Assembly: GCF_049701015.1 (NCBI RefSeq)
Contig: NZ_JBNATZ010000002.1
Location: forward strand, 1-44,039
DNA from: Desulfofundulus sp.
GTDB taxonomy: Bacteria; Bacillota; Desulfotomaculia; Desulfotomaculales; Desulfovirgulaceae
Direction: 5' to 3'
DNA length: 44,039 nucleotides
In this document: piece by piece, positions 30,454 through 37,086 of the stretch
Layout: each line of letters opens with the position of its first letter
How positions within the stretch are numbered: the stretch's first letter is position 1
Program-made: the position numbers and the translations under genes
Notes under the pieces: model-generated
Database searches by the model: none
Told to the model about the DNA's origin: nothing
Seen by the model: the letters and a program-made list of their open reading frames with translations, nothing else

Positions 30454-30702
30454 TCACGGCTTTTTGGTACTGAATAATTTCTGGTACCGTTCCGGATGAT
30501 TGCGGGGGAGGTTTTGTTCACGGAGCAGCCTGATGATGTTTTCCGTACTTTCCCCGGAGTTCAGGAGGTTGAAGAAGGCCCTCTCATTCACATAAACGCT
30601 GCTGCCGTCCTGGAATTCAATAAAGTACTTGTTTGTGCCCGGTATGGGGGTAGCTTTGATTCCACATTCGGTGAGAAATTTAAAGTTTTGCGCAGGTTTC
30701 AC
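30454..30702 (-). CDS. Hypothetical protein (~82 aa)
   Basis: GGGAGGTG SD before GTG 30702. Protein-like composition; converges on the arg terminator. Confidence 0.65.
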   Translation of the reverse strand: MKPAQNFKFLTECGIKATPIPGTNKYFIEFQDGSSVYVNERAFFNLLNSGESTENIIRLLREQNLPRNHPERYQKLFSTKKP

Positions 30703-31036
30703 GGTCCCACCTCCCACGGGGTGCCTGTGGACTTATCATACGTGCTTTTTTTACTAAAATAAATTTTCTTTCGTTCAATGGATGAATCTGGCCTCTTTCC
30801 GGTGATTGTGAATCGTTAGCCTTTTTGCATGTACTCGCCCCCCGCCTTGAATATAATTTTAACATATAATTGTTATAAGGCAAATTAATTCGTGAATTAA
30901 ATCCCAATTTTCCCGTGTCTCAAAAATACTAAACTTAAAATCCCTTGCCCAAACCTTACAAATGATAAAGGGGTTTTCATGGTTCATGGAGAATATGAAT
31001 AAGGTTACTTTCTGGTAATAACTATGAGGTGGGGAA

Positions 31037-32223: not shown

Positions 32224-32442
32224 GTGGACCGGCGGAAAAAAGACGGTCTTGGGCCACCGCAAAGTTTCGATGAGGCGGTGGAACGCATTCGGGAAAAGGT
32301 GGAAGCTCCTGTACTGTCACCGGCACAGGTGGCTCTGTGGCGTTCCGGTTACGTGGAGGGGGCCGATGAGGCCCTGGCCCTGCTGGAACAGGCCAGGCAG
32401 GACAAGAAAATGGTCGTGCCCGGGATCAGTGATGAAATGTAG
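32224..32442 (+). CDS. Hypothetical protein (72 aa)
   Basis: SD GGGGGTG/GAGGG. Follows the previous gene and is followed by a hairpin terminator. Confidence 0.65.
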   Translation: MDRRKKDGLGPPQSFDEAVERIREKVEAPVLSPAQVALWRSGYVEGADEALALLEQARQDKKMVVPGISDEM

Positions 32443-32473
32443 CGGGAGGTTTTCCCTCCCGTTCTTGTTTCTT
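32443..32473 (+). terminator. Probable intrinsic terminator
   Basis: CGGGAGG/CCTCCCG stem followed by TTCTTGTTTCTT. Confidence 0.6.
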
Positions 32474-32506: not shown

Positions 32507-32534
32507 GGAGGAATAAACGGTAGTCACATCGAAT
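32507..32534 (+). promoter_or_regulatory. SigH-type promoter upstream of the Enzyme I homologue
   Basis: GGAGGAATA-12 nt-ATCGAAT, a full consensus match. Confidence 0.65.
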
Positions 32535-32641
32535 TCAAAATAAAATATATTAGAAGTAGCAGCTCTTATCGTACCAGCCGTGCCAGCAACTGCTGGCCAT
32601 TTTTGTTCTTTGAAAAATAAGGGTTCAAGGGGGGTAGCGAA

Positions 32642-34369
32642 ATGTTGAGAGGAATTGCCGGGGCACCGGGGATTGCAATTGGCAGGGTTTTTATCTTTCG
32701 TCCGGAACAACTGGAGTTTGAGCGGAAGACCATTTTGCCCCAGGAGGTTGACCAGGAGCTCGTCCGCCTGCAGCACGCCCTCCGGCAGGCTCACCAGGAA
32801 CTGGCCGGTATTTACGTGCGGGCGATGTCTGATCTCGGCCGGGACCGGGCGGGTACCTTCCATGCCCAGTTAATGATTTTGGAGGATGCCGCTTTTGAAT
32901 CCGAAGTTATAAATCTTATCCGGTCCGGTATCAATGTAGAAGGTGCCGTGGGTGAAGTGGTAACCAACTACGTTCAGATGTTCGAGGATTCGGGCGACGA
33001 GTACCTTCGTGAGCGGGCAGCCGATTACAGGGACGTGGGGTGCCGTTTGTTGCGCATTCTGCTCGGCCAGTCCTGGACGCCGGTACCGCGTCTGAAGGAA
33101 GATTCCATTGTGGTGGCCCGGGATTTGACTGCCCCCGACAGCATGCAGCTGGACCGTTCCCGCATTCTCGGCCTGGCCATTGAGAGGGGGGGCCGGACCT
33201 GTACGGCCTGCATTCTGGCCCGGTCTCTGGAAATTCCGGCCGTAGTGGGGCTGGGACGTTTTGTACACCGGGTACAGAACGGGGACCTCATCATCGTGGA
33301 TGGCAGCAAAGGTATGGTCATTCTCAACCCCGATCCTGCCACGGTGGCCGAGTACCAGCACCGCCGGGAGACCTACCTGGCCTGTAAAAAAGAAATGCAG
33401 ATGCTTTCCGACCTCCCGGCTGAAACCAGGGACGGGTACCGTGTTCAACTGTTCGCTAACCTAGATCATCCCGGGGAAGTGGATAGTGCCCTGGCTCAGG
33501 GGGCGGAAGGAATTGGTCTCTTCCGTACCGAGCACCTCTTCCTGGGACGGGATACCATGCCGGGTGAGGACGAACAGTTCGAATTTTACTTGCAGGTAGT
33601 GCAAAAGATGCGGGGAAGGCCGGTGGTTATCCGCACGCTCGATTATGCAGGGCCTTCCAGTCCCTTCTTTCAGCCTACGCATTATGAACCCAATCCCTTT
33701 TTGGGCTGCCGGGGAATAAGGTTGAATTTGAACTTCGAGGAAATCTTGACCACCCAGATCAGGGCGATCCTGCGGGCAAGTGCTTTCGGCAGGGTAAAAG
33801 TGATGTTCCCTCTCATTTCCCGGGTTGAAGACCTGCGCCGGGTCAAGGCCATGCTCCGCCAGGCACAGGAAGAACTGGACCGGGCCGGCCAAAAGTTCGA
33901 CCCCCGGATCGAAGTGGGCCTGCTGGTGGAGGTGCCATCTGCGGCCCTGACCGCAGAACTTTTTGCCTCCGAAGTCGACTTTTACAGCATCGGAACCAAC
34001 GACCTGGTACAGTATACCCTGGCGGTGGACCGGGCTACGGCAGGGATAAATCCTCTGCATCAGGTCCTGCACCCCGCCATCCTGCGCCTGGTTAAGAACG
34101 TCATTGATGTGGCCCGTAACAACCGCAAGAAGGTGGCCATGTGCGGGGAAATGGCGGGGGAGCCCCTGGCCACCATGCTTCTTCTGGGTTTGGGTCTGGA
34201 TCAATTCAGTGCGGCCGCGGGTTCGCTGCCGGAAATTAAGAAAGTAATCAGGGCGGTCACTTTAAAAGAAGCCCGGGAAGTGGCCCTGCAAGCCCTGCAG
34301 CTCTCGGCACCGGAAGAGGTCCGCCGATTTTTGGAGCAAGAGATGAAAAGCCGGCGCTTGTATTTTTAG
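32642..34369 (+). CDS. PTS Enzyme I (PtsI)-like protein lacking the phosphoacceptor histidine
   Basis: GIAGAPGIAIG, EYLRERAAD, GIGLFRTE, NPFLGCRGIR, SIGTNDL and MCGEMAG are conserved, but GGRTSH reads GGRTCT. Confidence 0.92.
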   Translation: MLRGIAGAPGIAIGRVFIFRPEQLEFERKTILPQEVDQELVRLQHALRQAHQELAGIYVRAMSDLGRDRAGTFHAQLMILEDAAFESEVINLIRSGINVEGAVGEVVTNYVQMFEDSGDEYLRERAADYRDVGCRLLRILLGQSWTPVPRLKEDSIVVARDLTAPDSMQLDRSRILGLAIERGGRTCTACILARSLEIPAVVGLGRFVHRVQNGDLIIVDGSKGMVILNPDPATVAEYQHRRETYLACKKEMQMLSDLPAETRDGYRVQLFANLDHPGEVDSALAQGAEGIGLFRTEHLFLGRDTMPGEDEQFEFYLQVVQKMRGRPVVIRTLDYAGPSSPFFQPTHYEPNPFLGCRGIRLNLNFEEILTTQIRAILRASAFGRVKVMFPLISRVEDLRRVKAMLRQAQEELDRAGQKFDPRIEVGLLVEVPSAALTAELFASEVDFYSIGTNDLVQYTLAVDRATAGINPLHQVLHPAILRLVKNVIDVARNNRKKVAMCGEMAGEPLATMLLLGLGLDQFSAAAGSLPEIKKVIRAVTLKEAREVALQALQLSAPEEVRRFLEQEMKSRRLYF

Positions 34370-35369: not shown

Positions 35370-35723
35370 TTGGCCAGTCACGAAGAAATTACTGCCAGCC
35401 TCCTGGCCTTCCAGGAGGGGTACAACAAAAACGAGCGGCTGAAAATAATGAACCGGGATTGGGACCGGATAGTCCTGGTGCAGGCAAGCGACATTCCTTC
35501 CCAGCATACCCTGGAGTTGCGGAATGGGGAGTTATCAGTTAAAGAAGGTGCACCCTCCCGGGCCGACCTGACGGTAATCGCCGACAGCGAGACCCTGGCG
35601 GACCTTTTTTACGGCGACATTACCCCTACAGAACCCTATATGAACGGTACGCTGAAAATCATCGGTTCAGAGGATGATATTGTGCGGCTGGATTTTATCT
35701 CCCTGATGATCTGGGGTGAGTAG
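35370..35723 (+). CDS. SCP2 sterol/lipid-binding domain protein
   Basis: ADLTV...LADLFYGDITPTEPYMNGTLKIIG resembles the SCP2 C-terminal motif. GGAGG SD. Confidence 0.8.
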   Translation: MASHEEITASLLAFQEGYNKNERLKIMNRDWDRIVLVQASDIPSQHTLELRNGELSVKEGAPSRADLTVIADSETLADLFYGDITPTEPYMNGTLKIIGSEDDIVRLDFISLMIWGE

Positions 35724-35724
35724 A

Positions 35725-37086
35725 ATGGGTTTAAAAAGGGTACTCACCCTGCGTACCGTAGTGGCAACCAGTGCTGGCCTCACTCTGGCCAGTTCCTCTT
35801 TTGTGGCCGCCGTGCAGGTGGCCGGTTTCCTGGCCGGGGACAGTGCCTGGCTGGCCATTCTCACGGGCGGCTTGTTGTGCGCGGGGGCCGCGTTGTGTTT
35901 TTCCGAACTCAATGCCCGCCTCCCTTCCGCTGCCGGCATCCGGCTTTATTTCTCCCGGGCTTTCAACGACCGGCTCGCTCTGACCGTTTCTCTGCTGTAT
36001 ATGGCGGTGGTGATGGGGGTTGTGGGAGCCGAGAGCTATGTGCTGGCGTGCGCCCTTAATGCTGCGTTGCCTGCAGTACCGCCCCTCGCCTGGATTATGG
36101 GCATGTTCCTGCTGGTTACCGGCCTGAATATCCGGGGGGTTAAAATCGCCGGTACCTTCCAGGACCTCATCACCTACGGACTTATGGGTTCCCTCCTGGT
36201 CCTGGCCTTTATCGCCCTGAGCAAAGTAGGCTTCAGGCTCACCGCACCCCTGGCTCCGGGCGGTGCCCTGGCTTTCATCAATGCTGTGGCGGTTGGGGTT
36301 TTCCTCTTTGTTGGATTCGAGTGGGTGACACCCCTGGCCGAGGAGGTCACCCACAGCCGCCTTGTATCCCGGGGGATGCTGCTTGCCATTGGGGTTTTGA
36401 GCGTGGTTTACGCTCTTTTTACCGTGGCCATGACTGCTTCTACCCCCCGTGAGATGCTGCTGGGGTCACCCGCCCCCCAGATGGTTTTTGCACGCCATGT
36501 TCTCGGGCCGTCAGGGTTGTTCTGGATGCTGGTCCTGAGTCTTGCCGCTTCGATTACTACATTTAATGCGGGCTTAATCAGCGTTTCACGTTTTATTTAC
36601 GCTTCCGCCCGGGAGTATGTCCTGCCTCCCGTTTTTTCCCGCCTGAGTATGCGCTTTTTTACACCCTGGGTGGCCATCCTCACCGTCTTTATCACCGGTG
36701 TTACCATCTCTGTGGTAGTTCTGGTAACTCACCATTACCTGGTACTGGTTAACCTGGCGGCTGCCATGGAGTCGGTGGTATATGCCCTGGCGGGCCTGGC
36801 GGTGATCCGGTTGAGACAGAAAACACCGGAGGCTGAGTGTTCCTACCGGGTAAAAGGGGGCGTGGTTATCCCCGCCCTCACCTCGCTGGTCTTTGCCGGG
36901 CTGGCCGTGGCGGTGATGTGCACGGACTTGTATGTAAGCCTTTACCTTCTGGCCGGTTTTATCGTCCTCTGGTGGTACGTCCACCAGGTGGTTCCGGCTT
37001 TGAAGAACAAGTACCAGCCCCGCCGGCCGGCACGTCGCCGCCGCCCGGCGGTGGAACCGGCCGATGCCGGTTGCGAAAAAACTTAG
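35725..37086 (+). CDS. APC-family amino acid/polyamine permease
   Basis: FSEL...PSAAG, NIRGVK, FLFVGFE, LAEE, SRFIYASARE...LP, TPWVAI. About 12 TM segments. Confidence 0.92.
   Translation: MGLKRVLTLRTVVATSAGLTLASSSFVAAVQVAGFLAGDSAWLAILTGGLLCAGAALCFSELNARLPSAAGIRLYFSRAFNDRLALTVSLLYMAVVMGVVGAESYVLACALNAALPAVPPLAWIMGMFLLVTGLNIRGVKIAGTFQDLITYGLMGSLLVLAFIALSKVGFRLTAPLAPGGALAFINAVAVGVFLFVGFEWVTPLAEEVTHSRLVSRGMLLAIGVLSVVYALFTVAMTASTPREMLLGSPAPQMVFARHVLGPSGLFWMLVLSLAASITTFNAGLISVSRFIYASAREYVLPPVFSRLSMRFFTPWVAILTVFITGVTISVVVLVTHHYLVLVNLAAAMESVVYALAGLAVIRLRQKTPEAECSYRVKGGVVIPALTSLVFAGLAVAVMCTDLYVSLYLLAGFIVLWWYVHQVVPALKNKYQPRRPARRRRPAVEPADAGCEKT

Follow-up and report, generated by a model that had tools for sequence, protein, structure and literature searches.

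A clade of Enzyme I homologues without the phosphoryl-accepting histidine in Desulfofundulus and its relatives

The 44,039-nt stretch of Desulfofundulus sp. analyzed here (contig NZ_JBNATZ010000002.1 of assembly GCF_049701015.1, hereafter the window; source genome G000) encodes EI* (protein P0001), a full-length homologue of Enzyme I (EI) of the phosphoenolpyruvate (PEP)-dependent phosphotransferase system (PTS), in which Thr stands where Enzyme I carries its phosphorylated His. The loss of this His marks a single well-supported clade and is neither a sequencing error nor a sign of decay. The family is real and under selection, whereas its mechanism we infer: by analogy with engineered Escherichia coli variants, we see about an even chance that EI* is a PEP-gated open/closed switch acting through a remodelled helical domain on a putative partner.

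Sequence, phylogeny and selection of the His-less clade

The reading frame of EI* (32642–34369) is free of stops and frameshifts, and its helical, His and PEP-binding domains (PF05524, PF00391 and PF02896) all score above cut-off in one chain. The protein reaches 586 with the Enzyme I profile TIGR01417, whose cut-off is 341.7, and the GLFRTE, RGIR, GTNDL and MCGE motifs are all found. Codons TGT ACG GCC TGC encode C187, T188, A189 and C190, and alignment with E. coli EI (PDB 2hwg) places T188 on His189. The initial annotation of this DNA had described both the intact 575-residue frame and the replacement of His189 by Thr188 between two cysteines, and both descriptions stand; its further statement that the PEP-binding motifs are kept holds for the four motifs, but the PEP site is not fully canonical, reading AGPS for GGDK, with Leu at M429 and N467 lost. 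An AlphaFold model of EI*, built from 15 sequences (mean confidence, pLDDT, 79.7), has closed-form 2hwg as its best PDB match, with a template-modelling (TM) score of 0.70 vs. 0.50 for open-form 2kx9; because the root-mean-square deviation exceeds 11 Å for both forms, this preference for the closed form is weak. The 90% cluster that contains P0001 is composed of Desulfofundulus records.

Among the 120 best homologues listed for EI*, none of the top 17 (57–100% identity) has His at this site, which is Thr in 16 and Ser in one; the seven ranked 18–24 (50–56% identity) and the remaining 96 all keep His. Residues were compared across 16 clade, 7 sister and 142 canonical sequences, with the near-duplicates P0003–P0005 and P0013 left out and P0284, P0285 and P0288 added; the canonical set comprises the representatives shorter than 620 residues among 149 at 50% identity, the 7 longer ones being excluded. 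At site 188, the clade has Thr in 15 sequences and Ser in one, and His is present in 142/142 canonical and 7/7 sister sequences; with the 96 lower-ranked homologues keeping it as well, its loss in the clade goes far beyond what chance would give. In two trees, a branch sets the His-less sequences apart from all others, with support of 1.0 (FastTree, 88 rows) and 100 (IQ-TREE quick tree, 41 rows), and they are sister to the seven His-retaining proteins (P0018–P0024), with a support of 99–100 for the joint clade. This sister clade was not found in the 401 genomes of the phylum that were searched. Its records are labelled uncultured Peptococcaceae, and P0018 and P0022, which have neighbouring accession numbers, may be paralogues within one assembly. 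A search of genome contigs for related loci gave at least two of His-less-clade type among the 80 matches listed, a list dominated by canonical EIs, and a degenerate pattern scan of metagenomes returned two loci, both of His-less-clade type and none of the sister clade.

The EI* gene is present in 12 of the 162 genomes of the class, spread over three families; the carriers are sulfate-reducing spore-formers and relatives. All 12 reading frames are intact, each of 575 residues, and Thr188 is encoded by all four Thr codons across these genomes. A change from His to Thr takes two base changes, whereas one suffices for Gln, Asn or Arg. The ratio of nonsynonymous to synonymous substitution rates (dN/dS) is 0.040–0.092 between the G000 gene and seven relatives and 0.083–0.107 within genus g49; it is low in every domain, including 0.01–0.10 in residues 155–205, and the values are close to those of the downstream neighbour (0.050–0.068). 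The initial annotation had read the substitutions as neofunctionalization rather than decay and had proposed homologue alignment and dN/dS as checks. The conserved clade, a dN/dS of ~0.05 that nowhere approaches 1, and the expressed orthologue described below all bear this reading out; the alignment finds His absent clade-wide but the CTAC loop only in genus g1. Patchy presence in the class would fit a decaying pseudogene, yet with 12/12 frames intact, dN/dS values of ~0.05–0.1 and an expressed orthologue, the chance that decay or a sequencing error explains EI* is close to negligible.

The CxxC formed around Thr188, which had been taken for a new feature, appears incidental to EI*. The cysteine pair is confined to 1 of 17 clusters and to 7 of 12 carrier genomes, all of one genus, and we therefore rejected the motif as the key feature; elsewhere the loop reads STAC (G009), STAT (G019), STVS (three g49 genomes) or CTAV (P0006). 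The C187 codon TGT is one base from the Ser codon AGT of G009, and C190 corresponds to residue 191 of the E. coli enzyme, a site at which a Ser/Ala exchange leaves activity unchanged (PMC8295985). We consider very unlikely a thiol or metal switch in which C187/C190, or the more widely conserved C134, C248 and C356, sense redox or bind metal. CTAC is present in 15/15 listed members of the 90% cluster, and three cysteines are enriched in the clade (C134 in 16/16 vs. 1/142 canonical sequences, C356 in 16/16 vs. 16/142, C248 in 12/16 vs. 1/142); moreover, in the model C187 caps the helix that starts at 188, a geometry like that of thioredoxin. However, 503 of the 575 columns are invariant among the seven g1 genomes, so retention of CTAC there is expected and says little, and the restricted distribution of the cysteine pair and the tolerance of position 191 count against such a switch.

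PTS partners and expression

HPr was found in 15 of the 162 class genomes but in only one of the 12 EI* carriers, G000. It was not found in the other 11; the carriers are 90–100% complete, most of them 99–100%, and one (G001) is a single contig. All seven non-carrier genomes with a full match to the EI helical domain hold HPr, and the His could be read in five of those seven. A second EI match is absent from 10 of the 12 carriers, and G002 has only a broken ptsI remnant. In G000, HPr (PF00381) and EIIA (PF00359) are confined to contig C72, where a second, canonical ptsI (loop KTSHTS) lies beside ptsH; this agrees with the initial annotation, which had seen no HPr or EII genes near EI* and had suggested looking for a canonical ptsI and ptsH elsewhere in the genome. 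EIIA-Man was not found in G000, neither EIIA nor EIIA-Man was found in the four other carriers tested (G001, G009, G019 and G085), and the only PRD matches among the carriers tested lie on two G009 contigs of <800 bases. A profile of eight HPr sequences, run on G000 for a distant HPr, found the C72 copy only, the next match having an E value of 1.1.

With 11 of 12 carriers yielding no HPr in these searches, neither HPr sequestration nor dominant-negative action can be the conserved role, and we reject HPr-directed roles in that capacity. Of the PEP-sensing, HPr-sequestering regulator proposed earlier, PEP sensing survives as the leading option and sequestration does not; a dominant-negative partner of canonical EI, also proposed, cannot be a conserved function where 10/12 carriers are without a second EI match. 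That EI* acts in either of these ways is highly improbable: G000 does hold a canonical ptsI and ptsH, and EI* retains M78, D82, R126 and D129 of the helical domain, but besides the failure to find HPr and EIIA genes, the HPr-facing columns are less acidic in the clade (−1.9 vs. −3.4) and no HPr or PTS entry appears in the part of the D. kuznetsovii proteome table covered (PMC5770442). The regulatory protein of pyruvate phosphate dikinase (PPDK) was also tried as a partner and rejected; it occurs in 156 of 162 class genomes and therefore does not discriminate carriers. Without the His that defines Enzyme I, and with an HPr found in just one of 12 carriers, EI* should not be filed as PtsI. The named records of the family met here are all annotated phosphoenolpyruvate-protein phosphotransferase, and in these genomes the label ptsI does not show that a PTS is present.

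Two further observations concern PTS genes in the class. The C72 locus of the source genome (G000:C72:5085-10815; L002, L005) reads as a fructose-type PTS operon comprising DeoR, a PfkB kinase, EIIBC, EIIA, canonical ptsI and ptsH, with labels assigned from sequence; the other six g1 genomes have no HPr match, and G002 retains a decayed copy of the operon with the broken ptsI (L020, L036). Family f13 (L026, L027, L029, L030) encodes weakly scoring HPr-like proteins (E values of 1e-17 to 1e-22). HPr-like proteins, canonical copies included, occur in 10 of the 12 f13 genomes, 7 of which have no EI match, and the L030 copy has LDPQP in place of the LHARP of HPr and so is without His15 (Crh-like). 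The f13 proteins constitute a second His-less PTS relic in the class, but not in EI* carriers.

The EI* orthologue of D. kuznetsovii DSM 6115 (P0273; Desku_0361 at NCBI), whose CTAC loop is identical to that of EI*, is made at a steady level, and the evidence for expression concerns this orthologue. In supplement 4 of PMC5770442, it is represented by 19 unique peptides (39.5% coverage) and by tandem mass spectra in 21/21 samples. The same source gives log label-free quantification values of 7.50–8.06 on ethanol, lactate and methanol, similar to those of the PPDK regulator (7.5–8.1), with PPDK itself well above (8.8–9.4), in cells harvested at 70–80% substrate use. A silent gene, which the initial annotation had named as a result that would speak against its reading, is thus the opposite of what the proteome records. 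The word "phosphotransferase" is absent from the main text of PMC5770442, and there are no relevant matches in the supplements of PMC10907483 or the main text of PMC13541210.

The retained pocket, the remodelled helical domain and a proposed switch

The catalytic barrel of the clade is conserved. Equivalents of E. coli R296, E298, R332, D335, R358, E431, G452–D455, R465, C502, G503, E504, R126, T187 and G356 are found in 16/16 clade sequences, and R126, G356, E431, D455 and C502 are among the residues named as important in EI in the text available from PMC13598208. Around the pocket, M429 is replaced by Leu or His, N467 is lost, and the clade-wide changes include F299 to His/Tyr and W357C. Of the residues near the His site, P165 is kept in 0/16 clade sequences, S166 drifts, and T168, which hydrogen-bonds His189 in E. 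coli EI (PMC8295985, in part), is kept in 3/16. Conversely, the clade has gained Q49, H51, Y58, R67, R69, G71, E86, C134, I139, W145, P147, T244, C356 and a C-terminal RRLYF, and no canonical sequence (0/142) ends in L[YF][FY]. Helical-domain identity is 0.54–0.68 in 15/15 clade pairs from six lineages vs. 0.42 ± 0.07 in canonical EIs, and linker identity is 0.48–0.76 vs. 0.34, the canonical baseline being 261 pairs from 32 non-redundant sequences at matched barrel identity. The sister clade has K340 in 0/7 and has lost M429, yet keeps His189, P165 and mostly T168, so these changes predate the loss of His; as the tail is shared too, remodelling started before it.

Thr is shaped like Val, and Ser is near Ala. 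In E. coli EI, the occupancy of the PEP-bound closed state depends on residue 189, as the passages seen of PMC13598208 describe: ~0 with Glu, 10% with Arg, 16% with Gln, 23% with Asn, 65% with Val, 68% with Gly and 76% with Ala, whereas the wild-type enzyme never accumulates this state; closure requires PEP, and the linker is a hub. The H189A variant dimerizes and binds PEP (PMC5537066, in part). Since Thr and Ser resemble Val and Ala, which accumulate the closed state, the PEP level would set the open/closed ratio of EI*, and the clade would by this analogy carry a residue of the kind with which EI turns into a switch governed by PEP. With every Mg/PEP ligand and G356 retained in the barrel, EI* is predicted to dimerize and to bind PEP or a closely similar 2-oxo acid. 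With the K340 loop lost, futile hydrolysis of PEP would be slower, the constrained linker would relay the signal to the helical domain, and the new invariant patch of that domain would bind a putative non-HPr target in a conformation-dependent manner. EI* has no means to form phospho-His189, and in 11/12 carriers no HPr was found to which it could relay. The features by which a ligand-sensing pseudoenzyme is recognized, namely a lost catalytic residue, a kept ligand site, purifying selection and expression (here of the D. kuznetsovii orthologue), are all found in EI*. Possible, but doubtful, is the broader picture of a stand-alone PEP sensor derived from Enzyme I, with His189 exchanged for a small residue of the type that traps the PEP-closed state, the PTS discarded, a new helical-domain target, and a SigH-type promoter linking carbon status to stationary-phase or sporulation decisions; if it is true, the conformation of EI* would by itself report PEP in these bacteria, and no phosphorelay would be involved.

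Several observations weigh against the proposed switch. Thr and Ser do not appear in the residue-189 series as given in the text available from PMC13598208. The K340 and M429 changes predate the loss of His and need not serve sensing, and G338, which that text names as important near the interface between the N- and C-terminal halves of EI (EIN and EIC), is lost in 6/16 clade sequences; with G338, K340, M429 and N467 altered, PEP affinity, closure or the ligand may therefore differ. The proton donor C502 is invariant, which equally suits retained chemistry, and part of the higher helical-domain identity may reflect faster drift of the barrel loops. Finally, the level of Desku_0361 stays flat whatever the substrate and does not follow that of the downstream gene (rho −0.39, p 0.08), and so gives no hint of the target.

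Retained chemistry would mean that EI* is still an enzyme. Its barrel would hand the PEP phosphoryl straight to some new acceptor, which might be water, a small molecule or, in trans, a His domain (the C-terminal domain of pyruvate kinase, or PPDK), and its N-terminal half would serve as a docking arm. We regard this as unlikely. No catalytic residue of the barrel varies, C502 included, isolated EIC transfers the PEP phosphoryl to water (PMC9704738, in part), and other proteins with intact TSH His domains occur in all five carriers examined. However, the same source ties EIC hydrolysis to compaction of the K340 loop, and K340 is lost in 10/16 clade sequences; the strongly conserved His-less domain (residues 155–205) would be expected to cover the site; and the neighbourhood offers no dedicated acceptor gene, since the protein encoded downstream is without a PTS-like fold. 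It is less likely still that Thr/Ser188 is itself a new phospho-acceptor, PEP-dependent O-phosphorylation yielding a stable phospho-Thr mark. Only hydroxyl residues occur at the site across the 17 clusters, with four Thr codons in use, and the loops facing the site are altered, but Thr is much shorter than His and, by structural reasoning, would not reach the phosphoryl group. Napper et al. reportedly found in 2001 that the E. coli H189S, H189T, H189Y and H189C variants were unlabelled by PEP, which counts against a phospho-Thr, and the closed-state model likewise predicts small residues at this helix start.

A switch of the same kind could instead read another ligand, the altered pocket recognizing pyruvate, 2-oxoglutarate or other 2-oxo acids and not PEP. 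The pocket changes (M429L, loss of K340 and N467, F299 to His/Tyr and W357C) are clade-wide, and 2-oxoglutarate is a known EI ligand (works cited in PMC9856155); the arginines that close off the pocket and grip the phosphoryl group (R296, R332, R358 and R465) are nonetheless all invariant, and we consider such a ligand quite unlikely.

Genomic locus and comparison with known systems

Coordinates of the features discussed here are collected in Table 1. The SigH-like promoter that had been proposed for EI* itself corresponds to a putative site that matches the SigH consensus. Its strict form matches G000 only (chance 0.004 per 260 nt in that genome), and a looser pattern, drawn after the sequences had been seen, occurs upstream of 11/12 orthologues (chance 0.02). 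At L157, where a divergent Spo0E-like gene takes the upstream place instead, a similar site is readable by eye. One SigA-like site was found vs. 2.6 expected in shuffles, so it is not above chance alone. The leader (32552–32607) is a possible attenuator candidate: it has no Rfam match at gathering score, its fold z-score of −0.46 is not better than shuffles, and its hairpin was not shown to recur as a regulon motif. An upstream AGCAG could pair alternatively with CTGCT in the 3′ arm of the hairpin, G003 has a compensatory change in the hairpin, and G088 and G089 keep AGCAG...CTGCT beside the ribosome-binding site.

Table 1. Features at and around the EI* gene in the window
Feature	Coordinates	Strand	Basis or remark
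EI*, His-less Enzyme I homologue, 575 aa, P0001	32642-34369	+	reading frame, profiles, alignment to 2hwg, model
Thr188 codon ACG at the His189 site	33203-33205	+	alignment; Thr in 15/16, Ser in 1/16 clade sequences
C187-T-A-C190	33200-33211	+	CxxC restricted to genus g1, 7/12 genomes
Helical (HPr-binding-type) domain, clade-specific invariant patch	32702-33064	+	Q49, H51, Y58, R67, R69, G71, E86, C134, I139
Linker helix	33332-33418	+	more conserved than in canonical EI; T244, Y245; C248 in 12/16
PEP-binding TIM barrel	33419-34351	+	R295, E297, R331, D334, R357, E430, G451, T452, N453, D454, R464, C501, G502, E503 invariant in 16/16
Degenerate beta3-alpha3 loop, YAGPS for IGGDK	33644-33658	+	K340 in 6/16 clade vs. 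139/142 canonical sequences
C-terminal RRLYF tail	34352-34366	+	RxLYF-like form common to the His-retaining sister clade
SigH-like promoter site, GGAGGAATA-N12-ATCGAAT (AGGA-N18-GAAT)	32507-32534	+	match to consensus; putative
SigA/sigma-70-like site, GTCACA-17-TATATT, overlapping the SigH-like site	32523-32551	+	in 9/12
Terminator-like hairpin ending the upstream genes	32441-32463	+	consensus match only
Leader hairpin, GCCAGC-AACT-GCTGGC + T run	32582-32607	+	kept in family f1
"Quinate 5-dehydrogenase"-like gene, 303 aa	34426-35337	+	two-domain Rossmann-like, distantly AAR/TAD-like
SCP2-domain protein + APC permease	35370-37086	+	likely same transcription unit; the 303-aa gene has them as ancestral neighbours
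General-stress-17M/YflT-like gene, 134 aa	31804-32208 (window)		in many class genomes upstream of the 303-aa gene, as its ancestral neighbour

The 303-aa gene follows EI* in 12/12 genomes and in L156, with the SCP2 gene next in 11/12. It is highly conserved, belongs to no Pfam family and occurs in 152 of the 162 class genomes; where EI* is absent, it adjoins the upstream 134-aa gene. Since this gene is near-universal and lies beside the 134-aa gene without EI*, EI* is an accessory gene in an ancestral locus. The model of the 303-aa protein (pLDDT 92) distantly matches acyl-ACP reductase (TM 0.47), with no PTS-like fold among its structure matches; this fold, the presence of the gene in 152/162 genomes and a level that does not track EI* led us to reject it as an obligate partner. 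A second paralogue of the 303-aa gene lies upstream of mraZ-rsmH-type genes in L204–L206, as their sequences suggest. In G019 (L034:7104-8472), the usual neighbours immediately upstream of EI* give way to a phage-type integrase and an HTH_17 gene. Small conserved reading frames of 87 and 72 aa (30454–30717, minus strand, and 32224–32442, plus strand) occur near EI* and in several f1 loci, and neither has a Pfam match.

A literature search found no description of this His-less family in the sources covered, which include few subscription journals. Compared with PTS Enzyme I (TIGR01417; E. coli 2hwg, Staphylococcus carnosus 2hro and Thermoanaerobacter EIC 2xz7), EI* shares the three-domain build, with 41–55% identity in structure matches, and retains all Mg/PEP ligands, C502, G356 and R126. 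It differs in the missing phospho-His, in the altered K340 loop, M429 and N467, in the drift of P165, S166 and T168, in the new invariant patch and RRLYF tail of its clade, and in the lack of a detectable HPr in 11/12 carriers. Known PTS signalling works through phospho-His relays. PtsP (EI-Ntr) is an EI that serves signalling and not sugar uptake; it carries a GAF domain at its N terminus, retains the His and feeds a phosphorelay via NPr and EIIA-Ntr; EI* has no such relay, Pfam domain search found no GAF or other extra domain in it, and its match to the PtsP profile PRK11061 begins only at profile position 171 and scores 372.8, below the cut-off of 583. The His-retaining sister clade forms a joint clade with the EI* family and has an RxLYF-like tail and the losses of K340 and M429 in common with it, but it keeps His189, P165 and mostly T168, and it offers an intermediate for tracing the path from enzyme to sensor. 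A selected and expressed Enzyme I without His or HPr means that the fold is put to a second use, free of any relay and masked by annotation. Also comparable are the engineered E. coli H189A, H189V and H189G variants (PMC13598208 and PMC5537066, both in part), full-length EIs with a small, non-phosphorylatable residue at 189 that bind PEP and accumulate the closed state. Those variants are laboratory tools with canonical loops, whereas the EI* family occurs in nature, is under selection and has a remodelled helical domain. EI* is a natural counterpart of the H189A and H189V variants used to study domain closure, so a cultured thermophile for which proteomes are published can now serve to test whether EI closure is itself able to signal.

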